From: a virus
Length of the DNA: 64,000 nucleotides
Virus genome (UHGV): UHGV-1366603
Reading direction: 5' to 3' (one strand)
Shown here: positions 7,456-64,000 of the stretch, one piece after another
Position numbering within the stretch: the first letter of the stretch is position 1
How the letters are laid out: each line of letters begins with the position of its first letter
Notes under the pieces: model-generated
The model's input: only the letters and a program-made list of their open reading frames with translations
Databases searched by the model: none
What the model was told of the DNA's origin: nothing
Program-made: the position numbers and the translations under genes

Positions 7456-7474
7456 ACAGATATTATTTACGTGA
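7456..7474 (+). promoter_or_regulatory. conserved promoter-like motif AGATATTAT-N4-GTGA
   Basis: Exact 13-position motif in an intergenic region about 22 nt upstream of the 7496 start codon. Confidence 0.5.
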
Positions 7475-7495: not shown

Positions 7496-8044
7496 ATGTT
7501 TACAGGATTAATAGCACGTTTTAAGAAACGTCTACAGCAAAAGCGTTTACAGGCTCTCAGAGAGTCTCTAAGGCAGGAGTTTCATAAGAACATCCATAAC
7601 CCCTACGTAAGAACGTTTAGCGGCTTACGGTTGCTTACGTTGCCTATAAACGTAGATACCGAACCCTACCACCCCAGCTTACGTGGTAATCTCGAGTTAC
7701 GTATCGCTAATCTCGATATTCTTTACCAACGTCTTGCTTTTTATATCAACGAATACCAACGCACGATTAACGGCACCTCTATCGAGTGGTTATCATTGCC
7801 AGAGTCGTTAAGTAAACAAAAAGACTCGTCAGAAAACCGCTGGTTAGACACTTATTTTGGGACGTCCAATCCGGCGGTTGCCTATTATAAGCTAACGCAG
7901 TTACTCGAGCTTATCGATCCTTACGAAGATATTTTCTTAAAGCCCAAGACCGATGAAGATCGGGCATTGGTGAATCACTGTGCACATTTGTTTCGTGAAA
8001 TGGAGGTACTCATCGAACACTACCTTTTAAACCGACCTGTTTAA
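7496..8044 (+). CDS. hypothetical protein (182 aa)
   Basis: GGAG RBS; downstream of the conserved motif. Confidence 0.5.
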   Translation: MFTGLIARFKKRLQQKRLQALRESLRQEFHKNIHNPYVRTFSGLRLLTLPINVDTEPYHPSLRGNLELRIANLDILYQRLAFYINEYQRTINGTSIEWLSLPESLSKQKDSSENRWLDTYFGTSNPAVAYYKLTQLLELIDPYEDIFLKPKTDEDRALVNHCAHLFREMEVLIEHYLLNRPV

Positions 8045-19245: not shown

Positions 19246-22200
19246 TTAACCTGCACGTCTAACGTTAAGCTGTCGTGCTGGCTGTTCAACGGACATTTGT
19301 CGTGATGCTGAACCTGCTGGTGCCATAGGTTGAGCCGATGCGGTGTTTTGTACCGGTTGTGGACGTTGCTTAAGGATCGTGACAATCTCTTTGAGATAAC
19401 CCGCCGATTCTTTCGCAACAGCCAACTGCTGAACACTAATCGGATCGCCACTGCTAAGTGTAGGTCCGTTTTGTGCATCAGAAGTAACCGCAGGTGCCGG
19501 TTTACTCGTCGCTGCTGCGCGCTGCACAGCACCTTCTTTCACCTTCTCGACATCTTCTTCAGGCAACCCTTCATTTCTGGCTCCAGTTGCAACAGTCTCC
19601 CCAATCATAGAGGCGTCACCGCCTGCACTACTACCGCCAGGTGACGGTACTGCTGGACCACCACTGGTTGCAGCTTTGACGTTGTCCGCACCCATTGCAC
19701 CTTTCTCTGCTAACGCTTCATCACGACGCGCAGCATTGGACGCAGGCAAGTTATCCGTCGCTCCAGAAATTGATGGATCGTTAGCTGCCCCTGCTGCTAC
19801 CGCCGGAGAGGAGGCAACCGCAGGCGTTAGCCCTTTCACCATGTCTTTCGTTGAAGCTGGGTTAGCCGCAATTTCGTTTGTCGCCACAGCACCCATACGG
19901 CGGTTCAGTTCATTAATAACTTCACCAACAGTACGAATACGAACAATCTGCTTGCCGCGCATTTCGTAGAAGACCCCCTTATTACCACTAAGGATTTGAG
20001 GAGTAATGCCTTCTGCTTTGTCGGCTGGCATGTTCGGATTCTGCCGCCATGCATTAAGGAACTTCTTACCACCGCCTGGGCCCAAGAAGTGATACAGATA
20101 CGCAACAGCCGGAGGCGGTTCTACACCACCTAAGTCTTTCTGCGCCTGCATGATATTGTCACGAATAAACTGTACCCCGAGGATGGTATTTGCCCACGGG
20201 TCGTACTGGTTTACTTGCGGTATACCGTACCGACGAGAGTACCCTTTCATCATTCCAGACCACGTTTTGTCAATGAACTGGAACAACCCTGCTGCTGACG
20301 CACCTGGGTTCTTGACACCATATTTGAAATCAGATTCGGCTTTCGCCATCGCAATCGCGACCGCAGGCGGAACACCTAAGGTATTTGCGACATCCGCAAT
20401 CATCGCTTTAACGCCTTCTACGTTAGGTGACTTACCATCACCCAGTTTGCTGATTGGATACTTCTCAGCCAAGGTTTTGTAATCACCTTCTTTGACGTCC
20501 CCGAGTTTAATCCCGGATTGGCCCGTAGAGAACTTCGCGTAATTGCTAATACCCATCTCACCCACAACTTGAGACAGATCACCCGGTGTACCGTAAGACG
20601 ACCCACCGTTTGGCAAGTACCCATCCTTAGACGCTGTACCCCAATCAACAACACCTTTGAAACGATCTTTGGTGTCTTCGTCGGTTTGGTACATTCTCGT
20701 CGCACGATCGGCTTTCTGCCACTTCGCACGTTTACCTGCTGCGGGTGTAGACCGCAGGGTATCACGAACAGCCAGGTCAGGTTCTTTGGACAGTTCTTTC
20801 AGGTTGGCAAGTTCAGTAGCAACAGAACCTGCGTCGGTGTTTGCTTCTTCACCCAGTGGGTTGAACGGAATCTCCCACACGGACTGACGAATACCACCCT
20901 TCATGTTGTAAGCGCCACGAATCATCAACGCCAATTCGTACATGAACCCACCGGATACTTTCAGTTCGGTAGGGTCTGCTTGCGGAATGTAACGTTTCAG
21001 ACCAACGACGTAGGTCATATACGCCGGTAAGAAACGGTTGTAGAACCAGTTCTTACAACGCTCCTCTTTAGGACCACCTATCAGGTCAGGCGAGATAACC
21101 GCAATGGCTTCTTTCCAGTTGCCTTTATAGGTACAGTTCTTCACATCAATGTCTTTCAACACGTTCTTCTCTAACAGTGTGAAAAGATTACGCGTTGTTT
21201 GGTTGATAGTAACCGCACCGTAGGTTTTCCACCTGACCGATTCCAGGTCTTCCAAATCACTTTTCTTCGGTAAGGAATGCCAGTCAACTTGGATTTGAAC
21301 CTGTTCAGTTCCGTCTTCCCAACCTTCGACCTTCGCAACTTTCTCGTTACGTTCAGCATCTGCATTCGCCAGTACCTGACTGGTTTCAGCAACGGACGCA
21401 ACTTTGTGGCCTTCGACAGCATCACGCATACCTGAACGTTGTTTCCGTTTGTCGTCAGTACGCATGTTGATTGACCGCCACACACGTTCCTGTGCTTCGA
21501 CAACCTCTTCCCCTGACAAGAACTCTGCCGGAGTAAAGGTAACGAAATCCCACGCTTTAGAGAACCAACCCTGGTTAACTTTACGCGGGTCAGTCAATGA
21601 ACGGAATTCCGCAGAATCTTTACCCATCTTCATTTTGTTGTAGAGGGTAATCATATCCGCTTTCGACACTTTCTTCGGATCACCAACATCTGCCAAAGCG
21701 ATGTCGTTATCCATCGACTTCAGTGCTGAAATCCAGCGGAGGTAAATCGGTGCGAAACGTTGTAGCATAAACGCAGTAAATGCTAACATCTCACCACGTT
21801 CTTCCAAGTTTACACCGAACCCTTCTGCGAGTTTCTTCACGTCTTCGGAAGACAAGCCACGTAATTGTGCTTCACCCCCTTCGGTATACGAGACGTAAGG
21901 TTTCAAAGCGTCTTCTAAATAACGGGCTTTCATACCGTCTTCAGAAGACCACTGGTCGTAGTCACGGAAACCGTATTGTGCCAGACGCATATAGTCGAGG
22001 TACTGTGCTTTCACACGGGTAGCGCATTTATACGCCCAATAACCCAGACCAGCGGCAGTCGCACCGATCGCAATTGCAGGCCAACCCACCGCAGCCACTA
22101 CCGTAGATGCAGCCGAGGCTACCGCAGTCACTGCCGGTACCGCTAAACGTTGTACAGCAAACTTACCAACGTTCCACGCTGCTTTACCGAGGAACCCGGT

Positions 22201-25200
22201 AGGTTTAAAAATACCCCACTTCGCAACTTTGCCCAGTATCGAACCCACCGTACCTAAGATACTCACGATTGGTCCTACTAACGGTAAGTCTTTGAGGAAG
22301 TCCATCACCCCGCCTTTACGTCCTTTCTGCTCAGCGGTTTTCTTGGCTTTCTCTTCTTCCTTAGAACGTCTACGACGACGGAAGAATTGGAAGTAGTCAC
22401 GTTTTTCATCGTTGGCTGCCGGTTTGTTACGTTGTCCGAACTTACTGAACATCGTACGAATCAGGCCATCAGGTGCACCAGCACGTTCCGCAGAGTCACG
22501 CATGGTGTTAAACCAGGACATTTCCTGGAGGTTAACCATCCGGTTTAAACGTTCCAATAATGCTGAACCAACACTCTTCGCTTTCTGCTTACCTTTGTTG
22601 ATAACGCGTCCTGCGGTATCCGTTGCGGTTTCGAAATCCTCCTTCGCTGCGTTAAACACGCGTGTTGGAGAAACCTTACCACGAGCGTACAAGTGTTGAC
22701 GGTAAAACTCCGCAACGTCATCATCACGACCCGCTAAACGCGACTCCGCCCGATAACGTGTGGCAATATCGTAGCGTGGGTCACGGAAGCTATCTACTGT
22801 TTCACCAAAGCGCCCACGGAAACGGTCAAACCACCCTTTACCCGCAGCGCCCCAACGAGACAGTCTATCGCCAACGCCATGACGGAAACGTGAGAATCGG
22901 TCACGTTGTCTGCCTCGCCAATCCCGGAAATTCTGGAAGTAATCTTTAAATCCGTCGCGGAAATCCTTAACACGGTTAAGCATCCCTTTGATAGATTTCG
23001 AGCCAACGTTTTTCTCCAGTTGCTCCGTCCAGGATTCATCTTCAGGCTCACCGTCTAAACGACGGTTAAGGAGTTTATAGATACGAATCAGGATATGGTT
23101 GGTCTTACGGCCATTCGACCAAGAGAACATGCTGAAGCCACCGCCAGAACCACCTTCCTTACGATTCTGCCACCACCGGGTAAGCGGGTTGTCGGTCGCT
23201 AACTCTTTGAATTTCTCAAAGCCACGTTTTGCATTGTTCCACAAACGAGCAGGCATTCCGGTTACGCGAGAAATCATGCTTTGTAAACGTGTTTTCTCAC
23301 TCCCCTCAGGAATCTCATTAAGCCACTCACGCGCTTTCTCGAAGATAGACGCTGCTCTTGGCGAGATTAGACCAATCAGTTTCTTCGGTAAGTTAACAGC
23401 TTTGTTTACTGCTGTACCTGCTTTACCGGAGATATACTGGAACAGGGCCTGGAGTTTACCGCCTTTATAGAAGCGCAGTTTACCCGCAGCCGCTAAGTCT
23501 GCCGCTGCGAGAATCAAGTTCCCGGCTTCGTCAACAATATCACGACCCAGCTTAATGTCGTCTAACGAGCGGAGTTGTACCAGCTTGTTGGTTTTAGGGT
23601 CAGCCTGATAATACTCACCTGCCTCTAAACGGCTTCCTTGTAAAACAACATTGCCTTTCTCGTCGTAGATGTCCCGAACACCAAGAACACCTTTCCCGAA
23701 GGCGACCGCCGAATTCCAGCCTGTGGACAACGTACCAGTAACTAAACCTTTCAGTCGTTCAAAAACACCTGGACCGTCAGATGGCCCACCGGAGAATTTC
23801 CCACGAATAAAACTGCCCAGTGACTGTAAACGCCCTTTCCCTCTCAGGAACATGTTCTTCGCAAAACGACCCGCGCCCGTACCGGTGTCCCAAAGTACGC
23901 CCGCCCAACGACGGAACAGCCCACTTTCACCAAGCACGATGCGTTTACGCTTGCGTTTGTTACCGGTGCTACCTGCATCTTCAGAAGCGTCACCCTCGTC
24001 ACCGTCACGACCACCACCTAAGCTGGCCAGCAGGATACCTTCCTCATCCATGTTCTTAACATGTTTCAGAATTTCCTGCACGGTGTTGGATTCGGACTTA
24101 TTACGAATAGCATCAACGATTCTATCAAACTGTTGCTCTAACCCTGCGGTGGTATCAGGACGTTCGCTTAGCAGTTCAACAAAGTTGGTAGATTTTTCAC
24201 CGTAGAGGACAGCAGCAAGTTGTCGTGCCGACAGTCCACGGCCACCGCGACCGCCTTTACCTTTAACGGTGTCAATTGTCGACTCGTCACCGGTTACGGA
24301 GGCGTCTACCCCTAAACGACGTAAATAGTCACCTAGCGCAGAACCGTTTTTCAGTTTGCGCTGGATTTCTTGTTCACGCGTTAACGAACGACCGGAACGG
24401 GTTTTCCCCATGGCCAGGTCGTTATACAGCGTATACGGATCGTTAATGTCTTTATCTACATCAAACCGATCGTTCTTCGCATCGTACTTAAAGATACCTG
24501 CATCACGTAACGCATTCTCACCGTAGATAATTGAAGCTTCGTCTACCGTGTTTTGACGTGCACGAATTGTTGACTGAATGGCCGAAATCTTACCAGCGAT
24601 TTCGTTGCTAAGTTCGTGATGACCGCCTGTCAGTTCTGAAGACCGTGCTTCTAAGACCGCCTGAATCGCTTCTACCGCGTTTGCATTCATGTAACGATAC
24701 ATGTGCATCGGGTCTTTCAGCAGACTGCCTACGTCGAACGCCTTACCTTCAGACGCACGTGATTCGATATAGTCCGCCAGCGCTTGGCGAGTTTTCGAAT
24801 CCAGAGTTTTGTCTTTGTCGATAAAGTCAACGGTTTCGTTAATGTACTGCTGTAAACGCTTCCGCTGTTCATCGTTCGCAACCGCTTTACGGACACGGTT
24901 GCCGACAACTTTACGGTCAATCATCCCACGCGTGGTTAAATCGTACACCTGGTCGTGGTGTTCGCCGTACCCGCGACGAATAGATTTGTTAATCTCCGTC
25001 AGCAAAGTCGGGATGACTTCCGTGATGCTAAGATACGCTTTACGGTCGAACTTCGCAGCGGCGGATAACGCTTCTGCTGAACGTTCTTCTAAAGCTAATC
25101 CCTCACGACGCAGCGGTGTCACTAACCCCATCTCGTGCATTAAACGGAAGACGGTGGCCAGTGGGCCGTCTATCTCACCAGCAATCGCCGAGTTAGAGAT

Positions 25201-26382
25201 AGAAGATAAGTTACCGAACCCGTAGCGTGCCAACTGAAGCCGTTTCATGACTTCTGGGTTCTTTTCTAACTCACTGCGTGTCCAGTTCTGTAAACGTTCT
25301 ACCTGAGGTTGTAAGAACCGTTTTGCTAACCAACTACCGGCAAACCCTGCGACTTTACCTCGGGAATTCGTACGACGACGTTCTGGCGACAGTGTAGAAC
25401 TGTCTTCCATGCCGAAGTCGTCTTCCTGACTCATTGACAGAACTTGTTCTAATATCCCGCGTCCGTCGCTGAAGATATTCGAAATCTTTTTCTTCGCGTT
25501 CTCACGAATCTGATCAATAAAGTTATCCGCGTAACGCAAGGGGTTCATCCATTCGGCAGCTTTACGTTTTACGTTAGCCCAACGAACTTCAGAGAATTCC
25601 TCTTTTGCGTAGTCCGGCAACGCGGTGTTTTTAACAATCGCTTCAAGTGCCGGGGTGTTACGGCTAAACTCATCCTGTTTAAGTTTAGCAATATCTTGCA
25701 ACGCGAATAACGTACGGTATTGCAGCTCTAGCTGTTTACGCTGAACGTTAAGCATTACCCCGCGACTTAAACTGGTCGTCAGGTTAACGTCTTTCGCAAT
25801 ACCGATAACCGTCTGGAACAGCGCATCGGACTTCATGTCCTTGATGGTGTCACGAAGACGGTCTTCTACCATTCCTTCCTGAACTTCACGTTGTTGTTCA
25901 GGTGTTTGTGGCGTACCTGCAAAAACAGAGTCTAACTCACGATCCATTAACGCTTGTTTAGGATCGTAATTCCCGTAATCGTACTGGTCGCTTTTCGCCC
26001 ACTTGTCGATCTTACGGGTTACACTGTCAGGCAAATACCGTTTTAGGGTTGGGCCTAACTGACGAGCTTGTGCCTTCACCACACGGGAGGTCTTTTCAAT
26101 CTCGTCTTTCGTATGGGCCAGAATGTCTTGACCTGCGGCTTTGACGTTCTTATAACCTTCATAAGCGTCAGTCGCCGGTTTTGGCATTCCTTTTAAAATG
26201 ACCTGATCACGTTTATTTTCGGGCCAGATAGTCGACAACGCCGACTTACGGGCAGCACGAAATGTGTCCATGACCGGGTTACGCGATTGGTCTTGTTGAC
26301 GAGGGGGCTCATCAAAATCGTCCCAGTCGTCCATGTTATCAAGATCGATTTCATCGAAATCGTCTTTACCTTTTTTAGCCAT
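19246..26382 (-). CDS. giant virion-type protein with lytic transglycosylase (SLT) domain (2,378 aa)
   Basis: SLT signature AESDFKYG...AAGLFQFIDKTW and AYLYHFLGPGG near residue ~2000; acidic N-terminus; hydrophobic segments; Ala/Pro/Ser-rich C-terminal tail; size and domain placement recall phiKZ gp181. Confidence 0.7.
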   Translation of the reverse strand: MAKKGKDDFDEIDLDNMDDWDDFDEPPRQQDQSRNPVMDTFRAARKSALSTIWPENKRDQVILKGMPKPATDAYEGYKNVKAAGQDILAHTKDEIEKTSRVVKAQARQLGPTLKRYLPDSVTRKIDKWAKSDQYDYGNYDPKQALMDRELDSVFAGTPQTPEQQREVQEGMVEDRLRDTIKDMKSDALFQTVIGIAKDVNLTTSLSRGVMLNVQRKQLELQYRTLFALQDIAKLKQDEFSRNTPALEAIVKNTALPDYAKEEFSEVRWANVKRKAAEWMNPLRYADNFIDQIRENAKKKISNIFSDGRGILEQVLSMSQEDDFGMEDSSTLSPERRRTNSRGKVAGFAGSWLAKRFLQPQVERLQNWTRSELEKNPEVMKRLQLARYGFGNLSSISNSAIAGEIDGPLATVFRLMHEMGLVTPLRREGLALEERSAEALSAAAKFDRKAYLSITEVIPTLLTEINKSIRRGYGEHHDQVYDLTTRGMIDRKVVGNRVRKAVANDEQRKRLQQYINETVDFIDKDKTLDSKTRQALADYIESRASEGKAFDVGSLLKDPMHMYRYMNANAVEAIQAVLEARSSELTGGHHELSNEIAGKISAIQSTIRARQNTVDEASIIYGENALRDAGIFKYDAKNDRFDVDKDINDPYTLYNDLAMGKTRSGRSLTREQEIQRKLKNGSALGDYLRRLGVDASVTGDESTIDTVKGKGGRGGRGLSARQLAAVLYGEKSTNFVELLSERPDTTAGLEQQFDRIVDAIRNKSESNTVQEILKHVKNMDEEGILLASLGGGRDGDEGDASEDAGSTGNKRKRKRIVLGESGLFRRWAGVLWDTGTGAGRFAKNMFLRGKGRLQSLGSFIRGKFSGGPSDGPGVFERLKGLVTGTLSTGWNSAVAFGKGVLGVRDIYDEKGNVVLQGSRLEAGEYYQADPKTNKLVQLRSLDDIKLGRDIVDEAGNLILAAADLAAAGKLRFYKGGKLQALFQYISGKAGTAVNKAVNLPKKLIGLISPRAASIFEKAREWLNEIPEGSEKTRLQSMISRVTGMPARLWNNAKRGFEKFKELATDNPLTRWWQNRKEGGSGGGFSMFSWSNGRKTNHILIRIYKLLNRRLDGEPEDESWTEQLEKNVGSKSIKGMLNRVKDFRDGFKDYFQNFRDWRGRQRDRFSRFRHGVGDRLSRWGAAGKGWFDRFRGRFGETVDSFRDPRYDIATRYRAESRLAGRDDDVAEFYRQHLYARGKVSPTRVFNAAKEDFETATDTAGRVINKGKQKAKSVGSALLERLNRMVNLQEMSWFNTMRDSAERAGAPDGLIRTMFSKFGQRNKPAANDEKRDYFQFFRRRRRSKEEEKAKKTAEQKGRKGGVMDFLKDLPLVGPIVSILGTVGSILGKVAKWGIFKPTGFLGKAAWNVGKFAVQRLAVPAVTAVASAASTVVAAVGWPAIAIGATAAGLGYWAYKCATRVKAQYLDYMRLAQYGFRDYDQWSSEDGMKARYLEDALKPYVSYTEGGEAQLRGLSSEDVKKLAEGFGVNLEERGEMLAFTAFMLQRFAPIYLRWISALKSMDNDIALADVGDPKKVSKADMITLYNKMKMGKDSAEFRSLTDPRKVNQGWFSKAWDFVTFTPAEFLSGEEVVEAQERVWRSINMRTDDKRKQRSGMRDAVEGHKVASVAETSQVLANADAERNEKVAKVEGWEDGTEQVQIQVDWHSLPKKSDLEDLESVRWKTYGAVTINQTTRNLFTLLEKNVLKDIDVKNCTYKGNWKEAIAVISPDLIGGPKEERCKNWFYNRFLPAYMTYVVGLKRYIPQADPTELKVSGGFMYELALMIRGAYNMKGGIRQSVWEIPFNPLGEEANTDAGSVATELANLKELSKEPDLAVRDTLRSTPAAGKRAKWQKADRATRMYQTDEDTKDRFKGVVDWGTASKDGYLPNGGSSYGTPGDLSQVVGEMGISNYAKFSTGQSGIKLGDVKEGDYKTLAEKYPISKLGDGKSPNVEGVKAMIADVANTLGVPPAVAIAMAKAESDFKYGVKNPGASAAGLFQFIDKTWSGMMKGYSRRYGIPQVNQYDPWANTILGVQFIRDNIMQAQKDLGGVEPPPAVAYLYHFLGPGGGKKFLNAWRQNPNMPADKAEGITPQILSGNKGVFYEMRGKQIVRIRTVGEVINELNRRMGAVATNEIAANPASTKDMVKGLTPAVASSPAVAAGAANDPSISGATDNLPASNAARRDEALAEKGAMGADNVKAATSGGPAVPSPGGSSAGGDASMIGETVATGARNEGLPEEDVEKVKEGAVQRAAATSKPAPAVTSDAQNGPTLSSGDPISVQQLAVAKESAGYLKEIVTILKQRPQPVQNTASAQPMAPAGSASRQMSVEQPARQLNVRRAG

Positions 26383-55299: not shown

Positions 55300-55800
55300 A
55301 TGACTACGATTGTTTTTGACGGAAAGACGTTAGCTTGCGATGGCCAAGTCACCGTGGAAGAGCGTAGTGCTGCCACGCAATACCGTAAGATTCACACGCC
55401 GCCTGAGGGTACGACGTGGAAGCTTTTGGGTGAAGACGTGAAAGCAATTGGTTTGGCAGGTGATGTCGCCGCATTGCAATCCGTGCGTCAAGAACTCACG
55501 CTTGAACGTTTCGGCGGTATCGAACGGGGTGGGGTTCGTTTTGAAACGACGTATCCCGAACAGATTGAATTTATCGTACTTGCTGTTTTGACAGACGGGC
55601 GCGTTATCGACGCCTCGAAGTGCAAAGACAACAAATACGCCAGTTACGTGTTTGTAGAACCGCCGTATGCGATAGGCTCAGGTGCTCACTATGCCCTGGG
55701 TGCATTAGGCGCAGGCGTTGACGCCCCCACTGCGGTGGAAGTGGCGAAACGTTATGACCTGTACAGCGGCGGTCAGACGCAAACGCTTAAGCTGTTTTGA
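55300..55800 (+). CDS. HslV-like (proteasome beta-type, Ntn-hydrolase) peptidase
   Basis: N-terminus MTTIVFDGK...ACDGQVT parallels E. coli HslV MTTIVSVRR...AGDGQAT; later YAIGSGAHYALGA parallels IAIGSGGPYAQAA; GAGG RBS. Confidence 0.65.
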   Translation: MTTIVFDGKTLACDGQVTVEERSAATQYRKIHTPPEGTTWKLLGEDVKAIGLAGDVAALQSVRQELTLERFGGIERGGVRFETTYPEQIEFIVLAVLTDGRVIDASKCKDNKYASYVFVEPPYAIGSGAHYALGALGAGVDAPTAVEVAKRYDLYSGGQTQTLKLF

Positions 55801-55809
55801 AGTATTTAG

Positions 55810-55882
55810 ACCATTGAAGTTAGAGGAATTAACACCCGACTAATAATCGGTTATTTCGCAGGTTCGAATCCTGCCATTGGTC
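55810..55882 (+). tRNA. tRNA-like gene, anticodon uncertain
   Basis: Canonical T-arm GCAGG-TTCGAAT-CCTGC; acceptor stem with one mismatch; D-stem GTTA/TAAC; 73 nt; anticodon loop register ambiguous. Confidence 0.4.
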
Positions 55883-55989
55883 GCCCAGATTAGAACAATC
55901 GAACAAGAGTTACAAACTCGTCAGCCTTCAACTGAGCGTCGGTTGTTCTGATAACTTCTGCTCTTGCTCACGGGTAGAAAGCTCCTTAA

Positions 55990-58360: not shown

Positions 58361-58741
58361 ATGAATACTACACTGCGTCCACTGGACGTGATTTTGGTGC
58401 ACCCGGACGCATTGAGTAAAATCACTCTACGGTGCGAGTTAGACAAAAAACTTATCACGTCTTTAGAGTGGGGGTTTGTATTACATCCCGACGAATACAA
58501 AAATACACGCTACAGCGATATTGCTGAAGGTTCAGTCATCGACTGGGGTGTACCTGAGGGTTACGATGATGTCGTGCAATATATGTCAGAGATGACGGTT
58601 CCGTACAGCTTACCGATTGCTGGCCCTGCGGAGAATATCATTTCTTTACGTCGTCTTGTGAATGCCCAACCTGAAAACATTCGCAACGGTGTGGCGTGGA
58701 CAACAGGAACCGCATGTCATTTAAAAAATATGTTGCAGTGA
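58361..58741 (+). CDS. hypothetical protein (126 aa)
   Basis: GGGAGAG RBS. Confidence 0.5.
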   Translation: MNTTLRPLDVILVHPDALSKITLRCELDKKLITSLEWGFVLHPDEYKNTRYSDIAEGSVIDWGVPEGYDDVVQYMSEMTVPYSLPIAGPAENIISLRRLVNAQPENIRNGVAWTTGTACHLKNMLQ

Positions 58742-58752
58742 AAACGATAAGA

Positions 58753-58794
58753 CCCACTACTCGAATGGAGTAGTGGGTAGGTTTTCTTTTTTTG
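58753..58794. terminator. bidirectional terminator
   Basis: CCCACTACTC-GAATG-GAGTAGTGGG followed by T-run. Confidence 0.65.
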
Positions 58795-59607
58795 TTAAGA
58801 TTTGAAACGACCGCCAGACATGTAGTTGTAACGGTTGCCTGCGTCGTCGTTGTGAACCATCGCACGCTGTAGACGTGGTAGGTTGTCGTTGAACATTTCC
58901 CCGGCGTCGGAATAGCCCTCGATAACGTTTTTAAACGCCCCGAACTCCATACCGTTTTCAAGATGACCTGAATCCATATCGAAAATCATTTTGTTGTAGA
59001 TGACCTGTTTAGTGGCGTACAGTGCCATATCTGCAACTACCGGATAGAAGGCCGGTTTGATTTCGTTTAAGTCATCAGACAGTGCAAACTTAACTTGAAG
59101 CTTAGTTGCGTAGACGAACATCCCAGGGTCTTTGATTTTGATGGTGTTCGGTCCAAGTTTCTTAACTTCGGGTGAGGAAATACGTGGCATTGCCGATTGA
59201 CTATCCACTACTTGTTGCGTGGAGGCCAGTACCCCTGAAGTTGCCCCGTCTAAATAAGACCCTGCTGGGGGTAAGGTGTACGCTTGTCCTGCCACTGGTG
59301 TTACGGCGATATGGACGTCCAGTATCGGTCTACCCCCGGTTTTAATGTCATCCAGGTAATAGATACGTGAGTAGTAATCCTGGGTGTCGTTCTCAAAAGG
59401 TAAACCTTGGAGGTCGATTTCGGTGTATTGACCTAGACGGGAAACTTCCGGGATGAGGTATTCTTTAAATACCTTTTCAGTAATCTCGTTATCCAGGGAT
59501 GACGCAACACCATAGTAGCGAAGATTTTTAGGTACAAACGCAGCGCGAAGAATCGGTTCTGGAATCTCTCGACGTATTCTCCGTAGACAGTAGTCGATGA
59601 CACTCAT
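58795..59607 (-). CDS. hypothetical protein (270 aa)
   Basis: AGGAG RBS on minus strand. Confidence 0.5.
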   Translation of the reverse strand: MSVIDYCLRRIRREIPEPILRAAFVPKNLRYYGVASSLDNEITEKVFKEYLIPEVSRLGQYTEIDLQGLPFENDTQDYYSRIYYLDDIKTGGRPILDVHIAVTPVAGQAYTLPPAGSYLDGATSGVLASTQQVVDSQSAMPRISSPEVKKLGPNTIKIKDPGMFVYATKLQVKFALSDDLNEIKPAFYPVVADMALYATKQVIYNKMIFDMDSGHLENGMEFGAFKNVIEGYSDAGEMFNDNLPRLQRAMVHNDDAGNRYNYMSGGRFKS

Positions 59608-59726
59608 TGTGTGCTCCTGTTAGCTCTGTAAAACGGTTCATAGGATCGGGTAATGGGTAACTACGACATTACTAAAAAATACACTCCACGCCCTTCCTGT
59701 GCGCACTATACTCGAACTTTTTTTGT

Positions 59727-59745
59727 ATAGATATTATCTCTGTGA
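59727..59745 (+). promoter_or_regulatory. conserved promoter-like motif AGATATTAT-N4-GTGA
   Basis: Exact motif (59729-59737, GTGA 59742-59745) about 29 nt upstream of the 59774 start. Confidence 0.5.
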
Positions 59746-59773
59746 TGTTCCCTTAAAGGAGTATTTAAAGTTA

Positions 59774-60097
59774 ATGACGCGCGTACTTTTTGGTTTTCTG
59801 CCAGACTCTAGCCATTCAGTTCGCTATCGTCCTGAGGAAATTCTAACAGCGATGCAGGAACTGATTTATCCTGGGATACACAACCTCCCCAGCGATTGCT
59901 TAAAGATTGCAGAAAGATATTTTGGTTCGGACGCTTGGTTTATGATCGGCGCTTTAGGTCGTGACCATTCCAGTCCATTTTCTTATAAAAACGGAGTTGT
60001 GCAAACGTGGTCAAAATACACTTCAATCCAGCTACAGTTTATCATAACTTCTGGGCAGCGGTGGAAGAAACAACCTACGCTCCCGCTTTGCGGATGA
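59774..60097 (+). CDS. hypothetical small protein (107 aa), first gene of a compact small-gene block
   Basis: ATG 59774 with AAAGGAG RBS preferred over the ORF-track start. Confidence 0.5.
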   Translation: MTRVLFGFLPDSSHSVRYRPEEILTAMQELIYPGIHNLPSDCLKIAERYFGSDAWFMIGALGRDHSSPFSYKNGVVQTWSKYTSIQLQFIITSGQRWKKQPTLPLCG

Positions 60098-60636
60098 CCG
60101 TAAAGGAGAAACAGGCCGTTACTGTACAACTGATACACACTGCATTGGAGGACATTTTTTATTCTATTCCGCGAATGCCTAATACACGATTACCGGACTT
60201 TTTAGAAGACTACACAGATTCTTTTGTATTGACGAACCTTCTGGTGAACAGTGGCAAAATGAGCCCACCGAAAACGATTCAAACGCGTCGGTTACGTATT
60301 GAGCAAACCGTGTTTGGCGAAACACCCGTAGGGTTTGAACAGCGTGAAGTTTGTGTTTTACGTCCAAAGTCGTATCTATTGGGATTGGCTTTTGATGATT
60401 GTTACGATGTGTTGTTGTGTGAGGTTGAGCAATTAGTAAAGCAAGGGTTCGAAGCGGTAAACCAACCGTTTAATCCTTACCTTACGGTTGAGATAGAACC
60501 CCACTTAACACCACGCGGTCAGATTGCAATGATGGAGCTTCGTGTTGGAGAAGATATCCGATTTGTCCACTACCGCAACTGTTTCCCAGAAAAAAGATAC
60601 GATCCGAATTACCCTACTCGAACACGTGACGTATAA
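60094..60636 (+). CDS. hypothetical protein (180 aa)
   Basis: ATGA overlap with upstream stop. Confidence 0.5.
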   Translation: MTVKEKQAVTVQLIHTALEDIFYSIPRMPNTRLPDFLEDYTDSFVLTNLLVNSGKMSPPKTIQTRRLRIEQTVFGETPVGFEQREVCVLRPKSYLLGLAFDDCYDVLLCEVEQLVKQGFEAVNQPFNPYLTVEIEPHLTPRGQIAMMELRVGEDIRFVHYRNCFPEKRYDPNYPTRTRDV

Positions 60637-60976
60637 AGCGTACCAACGCATACTCGCGGACGATAGGTTGTCGTCGTATTCTGGTACAGATGCGGAACAA
60701 CTGAAGTACGTGATTCTGTCATTACTTGAGTATCTCATTCCGAACTTTACAGAGACCGGTTTATGGGATACTCATTGTGTGACCACGATAGTCAGGTCGT
60801 TTAGACCGAAATCAACGGAAGAAGATGTTCGTTTGATAACGAGTTATGTACGAAACGCGTTGTGTGAGGAAATGGGCATTCCTCCACGCGGTTGGCGTTT
60901 CTACTTTCGTTTAGACGGACACTTCCTCCGATTTATTCCAAAGAAGGTAACTGATGCCTATGACGATCTTTATTGA
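60625..60976 (+). CDS. hypothetical protein (~117 aa; start uncertain)
   Basis: No in-frame ATG near the upstream stop; GTG 60625 proposed; the open frame extends back to 60542 and overlaps the previous gene by 95 nt. Confidence 0.35.
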
Positions 60977-61358
60977 GTTTCCGTGGACAACCGCAGAGAT
61001 TCTAAAAGTAGTTAAACGGACAGCGTTTCTTCAGTACCTCGATGTGGCGGATACTGTGGACTATTATGTCGAACAGTTAGTAAGGCTGGAAGTGATGCGA
61101 CGGAAGTTCCAAATCGATAAGCGGACAGTTCAAGAGTTGTTCTTAGATATAATGAAGCGGTATCCCATCGTCGAGTTGGAGAAACCGAACAGTTACTGCC
61201 TTAATCATGTTATTGAAACTGAGCTGTTAGCCTCTAAGTCGTTATGGGCACGCTTAGAGGAAGAAGTCCCATTCTTACCGAAATCAGATTTTCTTCTGTT
61301 TCATGTAGGTGGTGGTGTGTGGCGAATGTATACTACAGGAGTGATTTATGGTGCGTGA
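60954..61358 (+). CDS. hypothetical protein (134 aa)
   Basis: AAGGT RBS. Confidence 0.5.
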   Translation: MPMTIFIEFPWTTAEILKVVKRTAFLQYLDVADTVDYYVEQLVRLEVMRRKFQIDKRTVQELFLDIMKRYPIVELEKPNSYCLNHVIETELLASKSLWARLEEEVPFLPKSDFLLFHVGGGVWRMYTTGVIYGA

Positions 61359-61857
61359 GAGCTACTTTATTATCCCGGACTATCAATTCATTTGTGGTCC
61401 ATTAACCGAATTCGATCCCAATTCGATATTGCGAGAAATCAATACCGATCTTAACGAAGTGTTAAACTATGCGATTCAGTATGGAATAACCGGGGAGTTC
61501 CCTAAGCTGGATCGTTTTGCGATACAGGGCACCATTGAGTTTATCTCTCGCGAGTTAAATGCCCAGGGGTATATCATCGAAGGTGAAAGAGCCCTCACTT
61601 ATGTGAAAGCGGTTCAGGATGTGGCCAAAGCGTACTTACTCGCGGTCTCTAGTCACCCGCATTGGTTCACCCGTTTTGGTACGTGGGTAGGCGCTCGTTA
61701 TTGTGCTAATAAGCCGGGTGCTGTGGAGTTCCTGGTTCGTTATGAACAGGTAAAATACCCCGAATTTGAGAACCCTGAGGCTATTCAAACGATGTCGGTT
61801 GGACTTCTCAGTGTTGTTGAGTTATTGCTTGGTAACCTGGCAGGGAAGATGCTCTAA
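61348..61857 (+). CDS. hypothetical protein (169 aa)
   Basis: GGAG RBS. Confidence 0.5.
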   Translation: MVRESYFIIPDYQFICGPLTEFDPNSILREINTDLNEVLNYAIQYGITGEFPKLDRFAIQGTIEFISRELNAQGYIIEGERALTYVKAVQDVAKAYLLAVSSHPHWFTRFGTWVGARYCANKPGAVEFLVRYEQVKYPEFENPEAIQTMSVGLLSVVELLLGNLAGKML

Positions 61858-62363
61858 TGAGATACTACTTTCACGTAGCACAACATGTACTTGATTACGG
61901 CAGGTTGAAGTTCTACGACGCTGTGCGCGAAGTTTTAGTGCAAGTTCTCGAAACAAGCAGGTTGACCGTATCGGAGTACGATATACGTCGACTCTATGAG
62001 GACTTTGCAACTGCGTACATTATCGGTGTGAAAAGTCGTAATCTTGAACTGTTTAAAGAAATGGTGATGACCGTTGCGTATGATGAGAATACCATCCCAG
62101 GCACTACGGTAGAAAGTATTAGCTTCCTTTCCACGCAGGGTACTGAGGACCAACATATTCTCGCAATCGGAACCGCTGCCGATATTCTCAGTCGTGAATT
62201 GGAATCACAAACAGGGTTAGCCGGACTTATTAACTCTATGTTCCCAGGTCAGTTAGAAAACTGGTCAGGTGAGTCTTTTAGCGAATTGGTGATTATCTGT
62301 TATGATACTCTATATGGAAGTTTCGGAAGTGTTCTTTCGGGACCAACTGCTTTCGCGAGTTAA
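61857..62363 (+). CDS. hypothetical protein (168 aa)
   Basis: ATGA overlap with upstream stop. Confidence 0.5.
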   Translation: MRYYFHVAQHVLDYGRLKFYDAVREVLVQVLETSRLTVSEYDIRRLYEDFATAYIIGVKSRNLELFKEMVMTVAYDENTIPGTTVESISFLSTQGTEDQHILAIGTAADILSRELESQTGLAGLINSMFPGQLENWSGESFSELVIICYDTLYGSFGSVLSGPTAFAS

Positions 62364-62364
62364 A

Positions 62365-62733
62365 ATGGCGGATCAATGTAAGGTGAAACCTGATTTGGCG
62401 TATCTGTTTCTGGCGAAGTATGCTGAGGAATCGGTACGCTCTATCGTTAAACGCATGGGCGAGGGTGAAACGTTTTTGACGTTCATCCCGCCCAACCGCT
62501 ATTTTATTCTCACCCAGTTGTCACAAATGTATCCTGAAGACGAGGTTATTATCTTTTCGCATTCTTTAATGTGGGAAGAGATTGATAAAGGCATCGACTA
62601 CCATCGTATACGTTTGTTGGTGGAGAGTTTGTGGCGAGAAAGCGGCTATACCGCAGAGGAAGGATCAAAAAGATCGAGAGTCTCTTTGTTTATGAAAGAG
62701 ATGGGAAAAGGTTTTATTCGTGTAGAGGTTTGA
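62365..62733 (+). CDS. hypothetical protein (122 aa)
   Basis: In-frame ATG 62365 just after upstream stop; weak RBS. Confidence 0.4.
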   Translation: MADQCKVKPDLAYLFLAKYAEESVRSIVKRMGEGETFLTFIPPNRYFILTQLSQMYPEDEVIIFSHSLMWEEIDKGIDYHRIRLLVESLWRESGYTAEEGSKRSRVSLFMKEMGKGFIRVEV

Positions 62734-63336
62734 ATGTATAAAGTGCGTGGCGATCACTTTGTTCAGCCGAATTTAGGTTTACTGGAATATGTTTCCGGCG
62801 GTGACTTCTATAAAGAGTTGCTGATAAAATCGATGAATTTGTTTGACCAGCTAACGATTTCATTACCTACGGATATTGAAAATCCCGATGACGTCACGCG
62901 CATTTTCAACAAATGCTTGAACGAGCGTTCCGGTACGATTAAGTTTCCTGGTAACAAGAATGAGTTAGCCAAACTCGATAAATACCTAAAAGGGTTGAAT
63001 AAGGAATATCGACAGTGGAATTTCATGTCAATGATGGAGACCTGTTATACAGATGCCGTTCTCGATGACATGAAGCCACTTTTGGAAATTTACGAGTTCT
63101 GTAAATTGCAAGGCGATTCCTCATGGGATGTTCTTCGTGAGCACGCTGTTGAGACGTTTCGTGAGGAGCTGGTCAGAATGTTTGACGAGAAATGTCGACC
63201 TGCTTTAGAACTGTTTCGTACAGCGCATAAGGGAAAAGTCTCTGGACTGGAACTTGCTATTAAAGTCTATAATCCGGGTTATGGTCAGGGTAGTTTGTTC
63301 TTGTCATTTACATTCTTGATTAAAATGAAAGGGTGA
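62734..63336 (+). CDS. hypothetical protein (200 aa)
   Basis: GAGGT RBS. Confidence 0.5.
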   Translation: MYKVRGDHFVQPNLGLLEYVSGGDFYKELLIKSMNLFDQLTISLPTDIENPDDVTRIFNKCLNERSGTIKFPGNKNELAKLDKYLKGLNKEYRQWNFMSMMETCYTDAVLDDMKPLLEIYEFCKLQGDSSWDVLREHAVETFREELVRMFDEKCRPALELFRTAHKGKVSGLELAIKVYNPGYGQGSLFLSFTFLIKMKG

Positions 63337-63339
63337 AAA

Positions 63340-63753
63340 ATGTACGACTTCAGTAATATCGAACCGGGTTCAATTGTAAACATCGTTTACGATACCCCGT
63401 TACGTGGTAACGAAACGCGAGTCCGTGTACTCGCGTCAAAAGTGGGTTATGAGCTCGCTAAAAACTCAGGCGAAGATTTAGCCGCTATCCAGAAAAACAT
63501 TTACTCGTCTTTGGTTGGACAACCGGTTAACGATTTGACCGCGTACAACTACATGTTGTTTAAGGACTCCAGTAACCGCATCGGCGTCACTGCTGATGCA
63601 TGGGTACGTGAAGTTCGTGTAGTACAAAGTCTCACCGCACGGTTTGTGGTTCAGTTGGACAACAAACAAGAAAAAGACGATCTGGTAGCAGCACTCAATG
63701 CGCGCGGATTCAATGACGTCGAAATTGAAATCATTGAAAACGAAGCCGGTTAA
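63340..63753 (+). CDS. hypothetical protein (137 aa)
   Basis: AAAGGG RBS; terminator follows. Confidence 0.5.
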   Translation: MYDFSNIEPGSIVNIVYDTPLRGNETRVRVLASKVGYELAKNSGEDLAAIQKNIYSSLVGQPVNDLTAYNYMLFKDSSNRIGVTADAWVREVRVVQSLTARFVVQLDNKQEKDDLVAALNARGFNDVEIEIIENEAG

Positions 63754-63760
63754 AGTTAAG

Positions 63761-63800
63761 ACCCTCTCTTCGGAGAGGGTTTATTTTTTTTTCTTTTTTC
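63761..63800 (+). terminator. intrinsic terminator
   Basis: ACCCTCTC-TTCG-GAGAGGGT followed by a long T-run. Confidence 0.7.
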
Positions 63801-63854
63801 ACGTTACCTGCCATCCTTATAGCCGAGTTAAACTGCCTTTTTCGAGGACAGCCG

Positions 63855-64000
63855 TGGAATACAATTCTCCTTTTCGTTTATCGGTAGACGAGTACCATCG
63901 CGATATCGATATTAACGATGCTTATCGTGAACAGGTTGCGCTATACATTCACAACGTAACCGCACAAAAATACCCTTTGGAATTATGTCGTAAAGAAGTT
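63855..64000 (+). CDS. 5' end of a CDS continuing beyond the window (partial)
   Basis: GTG with GAGG RBS; frame stays open to the window edge. Confidence 0.3.

Follow-up and report, generated by a model that had tools for sequence, protein, structure and literature searches.

The DNA analysed here is a stretch of 64,000 nucleotides (nt) from the virus genome UHGV-1366603, and "the window" below means that whole 64-kb stretch. Close to its end lies a compact block of small genes, g1 to g9, set between a divergently transcribed head-to-tail adaptor gene (g0) and the start of a DNA polymerase gene (Table 1). The block is a divergent new copy of a gene block that is known from the SPN3US-like jumbo phages but is uncharacterised. 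Open reading frame (ORF) calling on the window gave nine plus-strand ORFs, tightly packed from the ATG at 59774 to the stop codon at 63753. The initial annotation had counted ten packed ORFs of about 107-200 amino acids (aa); the packing and the shared strand hold, and the correct count is nine.

Successive junctions from g1 to g9 are overlaps of 4, 11, 23, 11, 1 and 62 nt followed by gaps of 0 and 3 nt, as would be expected of one operon with translational coupling. Inside the block (59774-63753) we found nothing resembling a terminator. The g1-g9 region appears to be one transcription unit, with a promoter motif at its 5' end and an intrinsic terminator at its 3' end. The start of g3 has an alternative, a GTG at 60542 that would give a protein of 144 aa; the alignment to phrog_8134 begins at residue 24 of that longer form.

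Table 1. Features of the g1-g9 block and its flanks. Identities are blastp values for the encoded proteins against Asesino and SPN3US; pI, isoelectric point.
Feature	Position	Strand	Description	Identity (Asesino / SPN3US)
g0	58795-59607	-	270 aa; head-to-tail adaptor (neck); Pfam PF24302 (DUF7484) at 2.6e-96; outside the operon	82% (gp25) / 77% (gp8)
Divergent intergenic control region g0/g1	59608-59773	.	166 bp; conserved blocks, promoter motif, ribosome-binding site	
Promoter motif ATAGATATTATCTCTGTGA	59727-59745	+	12-mer ATAGATATTATC, then TCT (3 nt), then GTGA	
Shine-Dalgarno sequence of g1, AAGGAG	59756-59761	+	read from the sequence; conserved in SPN3US and Asesino	
g1	59774-60097	+	107 aa; basic, pI 9.0; SPN3US gp9 orthologue; phrog_9874 at 1.8e-42	60% / 55%
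g2	60094-60636	+	180 aa; SPN3US gp10 orthologue; phrog_8359 at 1.5e-62; conserved N-terminal motif TVQLIHTALEDIFYSIP	59% / 50%
g3	60626-60976	+	116 aa from GTG; SPN3US gp11 orthologue; phrog_8134 at 1.1e-43	50% / 55%
g4	60954-61358	+	134 aa; SPN3US gp12 orthologue; phrog_9510 at 1.5e-41	50% / 35%
g5	61348-61857	+	169 aa; acidic; SPN3US gp13 orthologue; phrog_8024 at 8.5e-67	50% / 44%
g6	61857-62363	+	168 aa; most acidic, pI 4.6; SPN3US gp14 orthologue; phrog_8126 at 2.4e-38	31% / 37%
g7	62302-62733	+	143 aa; SPN3US gp15 orthologue; phrog_9694 at 2e-40, full length	49% / 43%
g8	62734-63336	+	200 aa; SPN3US gp16 orthologue; invariant motif EYRxWxF; alpha+beta fold (model); fastest-evolving gene	36% / 22%
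g9	63340-63753	+	137 aa; orthologue of SPN3US gp17 and phiKZ gp49; Pfam PF20287 'SH3DP'	63% / 54%
Intrinsic terminator	63759-63799	+	10-bp GC-rich stem, UUCG loop (63759-63782), then T-run; closes the operon	
DNA polymerase gene, 5' end	63854-64000	+	GTG start; SPN3US gp18 / phiKZ gp50 homologue; cut by the window end; aligned with the SPN3US, Asesino and CR5 starts	

Conservation of the Block in SPN3US-like Phages

Megablast against 50,697 phage records gave no match, so the source is a new species or a genus-level relative. The best protein matches of every gene are to SPN3US-like jumbo phages (Salmonella phage SPN3US; Erwinia phages Asesino, phiEaH2, Huxley and Kwan; Cronobacter phage CR5). 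Other window genes agree with this assignment, among them those for a tail sheath domain of the phiKZ type, for DUF7193 and for an SLT-domain protein of 2378 aa. Judged from these sequence matches, the source is a new SPN3US-like member of the Chimalliviridae, the nucleus-forming jumbo phages. Identical or 99% identical proteins are present in public read assemblies, and relatives at 50-74% occur in Salmonella and Shigella assemblies, which suggests an enterobacterial host.

Reciprocal one-to-one blastp clusters equate g1-g9 with SPN3US gp9-gp17 in colinear order. Each of the eight SPN3US-like genomes that we inspected (SPN3US, Asesino, CR5, SPAsTU, Huxley, pEa_SNUABM_8, Kwan and Phobos) has the block in colinear order, beginning beside a divergent 270-aa gene of the g0 type. 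In most of them no gene separates the gp49-type last gene from the DNA polymerase gene downstream, whereas CR5 and Phobos have two or three additional small genes in between. SPN3US gp9-gp17, Asesino gp26-34, CR5 009-017 and the blocks of phiEaH2, Huxley and Kwan share with our block the genes, their order and strand, the flanks, the promoter motif and the terminator. Protein identity to these SPN3US-clade blocks, however, is only 22-63%.

A wider frame recurs throughout the family, consisting of an opposite-strand gp42-like gene, several small genes in a row, a gp49-like gene and the DNA polymerase gene. We saw it in phiKZ, PhiPA3, Psa21, 201phi2-1, RAY, Proteus phage 10 and Vibrio phage pVa-21. 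Which small genes fill the frame varies between clades.

Promoter, Control Region and Terminator

The promoter-like motif to which the initial annotation pointed is real, being recurrent in the window and kept across relatives. Its core, A[TC][AT]GATATTAT[CT] with GTGA 3 nt further on, occurs four times in the window (at 7456, 52043, 57341 and 59727). All four copies are intergenic and on the plus strand, with the end of the 12-mer 25-52 nt before a plus-strand start codon. By our own arithmetic, about 0.1 chance occurrences of the exact 10-mer are expected in 128 kb. In SPN3US, Asesino, SPAsTU, Huxley, pEa_SNUABM_8 and Kwan the motif likewise heads the orthologous block; the Derbicusviruses CR5 and Phobos have the variant ACATATATTATC at the same place.

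We then searched the 30 kb downstream of the polymerase gene in SPN3US for the 12-mer, allowing one mismatch. There were five copies against 0.12 expected, and none of 100 shuffles reached five. One of these copies precedes the non-virion RNA polymerase (nvRNAP) genes gp34-gp35 by 31 nt; gp34 carries an Rpb2 domain, and gp35 is, by name, the nvRNAP beta' subunit. Another precedes gp22-gp23. The annotation of gp23 is RNA polymerase beta subunit, and its match to an Rpb1 domain is weak and below threshold. Because the 12-mer directly precedes the SPN3US nvRNAP genes, the motif is probably an early promoter read by the injected virion RNA polymerase. Early expression of the nvRNAP genes has been established in phiKZ, not in SPN3US.

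According to a review (PMC7598289), each of these jumbo phages has its own conserved AT-rich element of some 10 nt upstream of the early operons, with its centre near -10, and the injected virion RNA polymerase reads it. Like the early promoters of phiKZ-like jumbo phages, our motif is AT-rich, about 10-12 nt long and placed before small-gene operons and nvRNAP genes. It differs in that the sequence ATAGATATTATC is specific to the SPN3US clade. Promoters of the sigma-70 type are rarer than chance in the region (7 against 11.9 expected), which fits host-independent transcription.

Beyond the block, the window copies at 7456, 52043 and 57341, which read A[TC]AGATATTAT[CT] with GTGA after 3 nt, precede genes starting at 7496, about 52080 and 57405. 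They probably mark further early transcription units. In SPN3US, two motif copies, ATTGATATTATC and CAGATATTATC (NC_027402 15616-15729), precede gp22, a 617-aa gene product encoded at the position of the phiKZ nuclear-shell gene.

Three genera share 84% identity in the g0/g1 spacer, compared with about 67-72% for DNA of the block region where it is alignable (12-39% coverage). Invariant blocks beyond the promoter are CATCGGGTAATG, CCTTCCTGTGCGCAC (which contains the palindrome GTGCGCAC) and ATACTCGAA. The conserved spacer may hold a regulator site or operator, or it may hold a (late) promoter of the adaptor gene g0. A search of Rfam with positions 58700-64000 gave no known RNA family.

The strong terminator that the initial annotation had placed at 63761-63800 was borne out as a stem-loop at 63759-63782 followed by a T-run. 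The hairpin has a free energy of -16.5 kcal/mol (z -3.9), and none of 200 shuffles was equally stable. It is kept in SPN3US and Asesino, and the stem shows a compensatory change from T:A to A:T.

The Proteins Encoded by g1 to g8

The products of g1-g8 diverge far faster than that of the flanking gene g0 (22-60% versus 77-82% identity). None contains a Pfam domain or a transmembrane-like segment, and all-against-all BLASTP within the block showed no paralogy, with nothing better than E 0.1. The predicted pI is 4.6-6.1 for g2-g8 and 9.0 for g1. The statement in the initial annotation that none of the genes has a recognisable motif was mistaken for g9, which matches Pfam PF20287 at 1e-28; all nine proteins, besides, match PHROG families (1e-36 to 1e-67). 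The main PHROG families of g1-g8 are all of unknown function. The sole functionally labelled PHROG match among these eight is a weak and unexplained, though formally significant, one of g6 to phrog_17386, 'virion structural protein' (9.5e-5). None of the RAY and phiKZ block proteins tested is in phrog_17386; they belong to other PHROGs.

Relatives of these proteins are few and confined to the clade. An exhaustive hidden Markov model search of 1.84 billion cluster representatives with the g2 profile returned 18 proteins, all of the SPN3US-clade type. Every one of the 61 phage records that tblastn matched to g5 is SPN3US-like, with identities reaching 54%. Word-indexed searches of large databases with g8, g5 and g2 gave 3-5 matches each, and this scarcity makes for shallow alignments in structure prediction. 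Two of the g2-profile matches look like g1 and g2 sequence that has been scrambled or frame-fused. In P0028 a g1-like N-terminus is followed by the N-terminal motif of g2, and P0025 has pieces of g2 sequence in shuffled order; both are probably artefacts of assembly or gene calling.

To look beyond the clade, we ran hhalign all-against-all on 45 families, comprising the block genes described here and those of phiKZ, PhiPA3, Psa21, 201phi2-1, RAY, Proteus phage 10 and pVa-21. The g2 family matched gp200 of Vibrio phage pVa-21, the first gene of that phage's block, with 87% probability and an E value of 4e-6. A weak match linked g5 to pVa-21 gp202 (E 0.002; hhalign 15%). Apart from these two, no cross-clade link was found for the window families.

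Structures were modelled for g8 and g2 only. The AlphaFold model of g8 is confident, with a predicted local distance difference test score (pLDDT) of 83.7 and a predicted template modelling score (pTM) of 0.81, and shows an alpha+beta core with a long helical insertion. Its only significant matches in BFVD are the orthologues of its own clade, with template modelling (TM) scores of 0.72-0.83 at 14-24% identity, and it has no relative in the PDB. The AlphaFold2 model of g2 is poor (pLDDT 61), and a fold search of BFVD led to clade orthologues only. Structure prediction was among the checks proposed in the initial annotation, and for these two proteins it revealed neither a PDB or BFVD relative outside the clade nor an inhibitor fold.

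Structural Genes at the Edges of the Block

Sequence matches of g0 in the PDB are 9xpe_A, 'PHIKZ042' (12 chains, E 1.4e-25), and 11ed_U, Goslar gp233 (E 1.8e-11). Both phiKZ gp42 (PMC13250141) and Goslar gp233 (Goslar virion preprint) are dodecameric head-to-tail adaptors. DUF7484, which is unnamed in Pfam, is therefore the head-to-tail adaptor of solved structures. The family is widespread, and tblastn finds it in 195 phage records.

The match of g9 to PF20287 scores 99.8 bits against a cut-off of 25 and covers 122 of 122 model positions. In the PDB, g9 matches an 'SH3 fold domain-containing protein' of 137 aa, of which entries 11lx and 36za together contain 28 chains (E 3.3e-6); one of the two entries also has a 12-chain homologue of g0. 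The matched chain is 39-43% identical to PhiPA3 gp046, phiKZ gp49 and 201phi2-1 gp81. Cryo-electron microscopy shows that twelve dimers of phiKZ gp49 form the hexagonal baseplate ring HR1 (PMC13250141), and the 201phi2-1 record flags gp81 as detected by mass spectrometry. The proteins g9 and phiKZ gp49 are equally long (137 aa), and the gene of each immediately precedes the one for DNA polymerase. From this homology, g9 is most likely a baseplate ring protein. Since g9 is orthologous to the baseplate protein gp49, at least one gene of the block is structural.

The name of PF20287, 'SH3 fold domain associated with phage DNA polymerases', implies a polymerase cofactor, whereas the solved phiKZ virion puts gp49 in the baseplate. 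The link to the polymerase was suggested from gene neighbourhood by Iyer et al. 2021 (PMC7824862). A phiKZ knock-down study found a severe effect for gp49 and called it a polymerase interactor, and the PF20287 homologue is non-essential in Serratia phage PCH45. Because a member of the family is a baseplate protein in solved virions, we do not take the label as a function.

Positional Counterparts in phiKZ

The phiKZ genes gp43-48 occupy the same slot, bounded by the gp42 adaptor gene on the opposite strand and by gp49 and the gp50 DNA polymerase gene, and they are similar in number and size and likewise clade-restricted. The likeness to g1-g8 is positional, with no detectable sequence homology. 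In RAY and Proteus phage 10 the slot also holds PhuZ and a protein of 430-500 aa, whereas the SPN3US clade is without both.

The two phiKZ genes just upstream of gp49 are orf47, encoding Imp2, and orf48, encoding Imp4 (bioRxiv 10.1101/2024.03.27.586873). According to the same study, specific cargos are no longer imported into the nucleus when Imp2 or Imp4 carries escape mutations; Nlp1 depends on Imp2, which is itself imported, the host topoisomerase TopA depends on Imp4, and conservation of both is reported only among Pseudomonas phages.

To place these genes in time, we used RNA-seq read counts from the control series in the source data of PMC12571901 (Table 2). RNA of gp44, gp46, gp47 and gp48 is present at 5 min, is highest at 10 min and then stays flat or falls, a course like that of the nvRNAP gene and not like that of the capsid gene. 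RNA of gp49 climbs steadily to 30 min (PMC12571901).

Table 2. RNA-seq read counts of phiKZ genes during infection (PMC12571901).
phiKZ gene	5 min	10 min	15 min	20 min	30 min
gp44	847	1053	394	264	208
gp46	715	944	724	598	304
gp47 (Imp2)	1407	1933	1545	1493	1290
gp48 (Imp4)	757	1081	889	992	828
gp74, nvRNAP (early)	13468	22504	19319	11430	10023
gp120, major capsid (late)	21025	22710	25789	36726	121458

Virion data fit non-structural products of these genes. The text of a virion atlas covering 40 proteins of phiKZ makes no mention of gp43, gp45, gp47 or gp48 (PMC13250141), and the main text of the virion proteomics papers on SPN3US makes none of gp8-gp17. Within gp73-81 of the 201phi2-1 record, only gp73 and gp81 carry a mass-spectrometry flag, and gp74-80 are unflagged. 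The phiKZ positional counterparts are early, non-structural and, where studied, nucleus-related. The initial annotation had called the block's genes early, and for the block as a transcription unit this receives indirect support from two sides: the same 12-mer stands before the SPN3US nvRNAP genes, and RNA of phiKZ gp44, gp46, gp47 and gp48 is there at 5-10 min.

While comparing these slots we also noted an unannotated ORF of 137 codons between gp42 and gp43 in the phiKZ RefSeq record (NC_004629 35914-36327). It is homologous to Psa21 gp038 (E 3e-13), PhiPA3 gp038 and 201phi2-1 gp74.

Other Features of the Window

The region 55300-55885 holds an HslV-family peptidase gene (55300-55800) followed by the only tRNA gene of the window, which ARAGORN reads as a tRNA-Ile with the unusual anticodon AAT. 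Relatives have clusters of 6-12 tRNA genes at the corresponding place. The 2378-aa ORF lies on the minus strand at 19246-26382, has its SLT lytic transglycosylase domain near residue 2000, and probably encodes a tape-measure-like protein of the SPN3US gp239 type. The adjoining ORFs, of 541 and 1388 aa, correspond in size to the virion RNA polymerase subunits gp240 and gp241.

Discussion

The reading that we favour, and in which we place about even confidence, is a conserved early operon whose genes g1-g8 encode accessory factors that are specific to the lineage and work inside the cell for the phage nucleus or replication compartment, with g9 supplying a baseplate protein. The virion RNA polymerase, injected with the DNA, would read the promoter motif; if the motif is an early promoter, the operon is expressed in the first minutes of infection. 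The proteins g1-g8 would be soluble, mostly acidic and non-structural and would act in the infected cell on the phage's own replication compartment, for example as cargo-specific import adaptors or replication-compartment helpers. We propose a nucleus-related role because the positional counterparts in phiKZ include Imp2 and Imp4. Fast divergence would then reflect co-evolution with host- or cargo-specific partners. As for g9, it may be co-transcribed early at a low level, or an additional internal promoter may serve it later, and its final place would be the tail baseplate ring.

Several observations weigh against this reading. It is odd for an early operon to end in a baseplate gene. Small genes that neighbour the block are no less divergent (24-38% identity; 24-58% for those immediately upstream), so fast divergence is not special to the block. 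Every hhalign comparison of g1-g8 with phiKZ gp43-48 stayed below 8% probability, the best being g1 with Imp4 (7.7%), and conserved motifs differ. Two weak signals do lead from g8 to Imp2. The best hhalign partner of g8 is the Imp2 family, at only 2.8%. When the g8 model was searched against BFVD with Foldseek, PhiPA3 gp044, of the Imp2 family, came at rank 8 and was non-significant (E 0.19, TM 0.26). Also non-significant was 201phi2-1 B3FK54 at rank 48 (E 1.6, TM about 0.25), whose 276 aa are the length of gp79, the Imp2 homologue. As these matches are non-significant and the conserved motifs differ, we do not claim homology between g8 and Imp2. Identification of SPN3US gp22 as chimallin was not confirmed either, as pairwise BLASTP to phiKZ ChmA was not significant; tblastn with phiKZ ChmA listed no SPN3US-like phage.

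The initial annotation offered the block as a candidate host-takeover or anti-defence cassette, and we consider it rather unlikely that g1-g8 are early proteins of that kind, acting before the phage nucleus is built. An early-type promoter, small proteins of unknown function with no known folds, restriction to one phage clade and divergence as fast as in an arms race would all suit such a role. However, no characterised inhibitor family was matched in Pfam or PHROG, and the only characterised genes in the equivalent chimallivirus slot, those for Imp2 and Imp4, serve the phage nucleus. Known anti-defence loci are usually patchy and variable. The nine genes here are fixed in order in every SPN3US-like genus examined, in phages whose hosts include Salmonella, Erwinia, Cronobacter, Escherichia and Proteus, and so do not form the variable accessory island that is typical of anti-defence genes. 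The operon moreover includes a structural gene. The initial annotation itself had held that virion components would speak against early effectors, and g9, with a phiKZ orthologue in the virion baseplate, is most likely such a component. With the block fixed in eight of eight genomes and no inhibitor family matched, we see no positive support for a takeover cassette, and for g9 the idea is contradicted; a host-directed role for some of g1-g8 is nonetheless a live rival.

Two other roles were weighed for the same genes. If the genes encoded accessory replisome subunits, or factors for assembling the replisome, under joint regulation with the neighbouring polymerase gene, this would explain why the block lies immediately upstream of that gene family-wide, and it would agree with the PF20287 name of g9, with the proposal of Iyer et al. 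2021 that the SH3 protein is a polymerase subunit, and with the strong knock-down phenotype of phiKZ gp49, a polymerase interactor in the words of that study. We find this distinctly unlikely, given that the proposed link came from gene neighbourhood, that cryo-electron microscopy puts gp49 in the baseplate, and that a strong terminator stands between the block and the polymerase gene. That g1-g8 are themselves virion components, or chaperones of neck and baseplate morphogenesis, is suggested by the structural genes on both sides (adaptor g0, baseplate g9) and by the weak PHROG match of g6, yet it seems to us very improbable. The promoter motif is the one that precedes the nvRNAP genes, and the phiKZ counterparts peak early. 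The silence of the phiKZ virion atlas on gp43, gp45, gp47 and gp48, the pattern of mass-spectrometry flags in 201phi2-1 and the placing of the tested RAY and phiKZ block proteins outside phrog_17386 argue in the same direction.

The favoured reading, of accessory factors for the phage's own compartment, has a bolder extension that we regard as unlikely. The slot between the neck-adaptor gene and the gp49 and DNA polymerase genes would be a family-wide island of fast turnover, in which each lineage keeps its own early nucleus specificity factors and g1-g8 are the functional equivalents of Imp2 and Imp4. Within such an island, g8 may be a very remote relative of Imp2. If this were true, g1-g8 would decide which phage and host proteins, such as topoisomerase, enter the nucleus in enterobacterial hosts, and cargo-specific import factors, reported so far from Pseudomonas phages only, would be a feature of the entire family.

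Should g1-g8 prove to be no more than dispensable early genes of the usual kind, the finding would be a routine one. The block supplies eight candidate genes for nucleus-related roles in tractable systems, namely SPN3US, Asesino and their Salmonella and Erwinia hosts. It bears on how nucleus-forming jumbo phages select proteins for nuclear entry, a process for which Imp2, Imp4 and Imp5 have been reported only from Pseudomonas phages.

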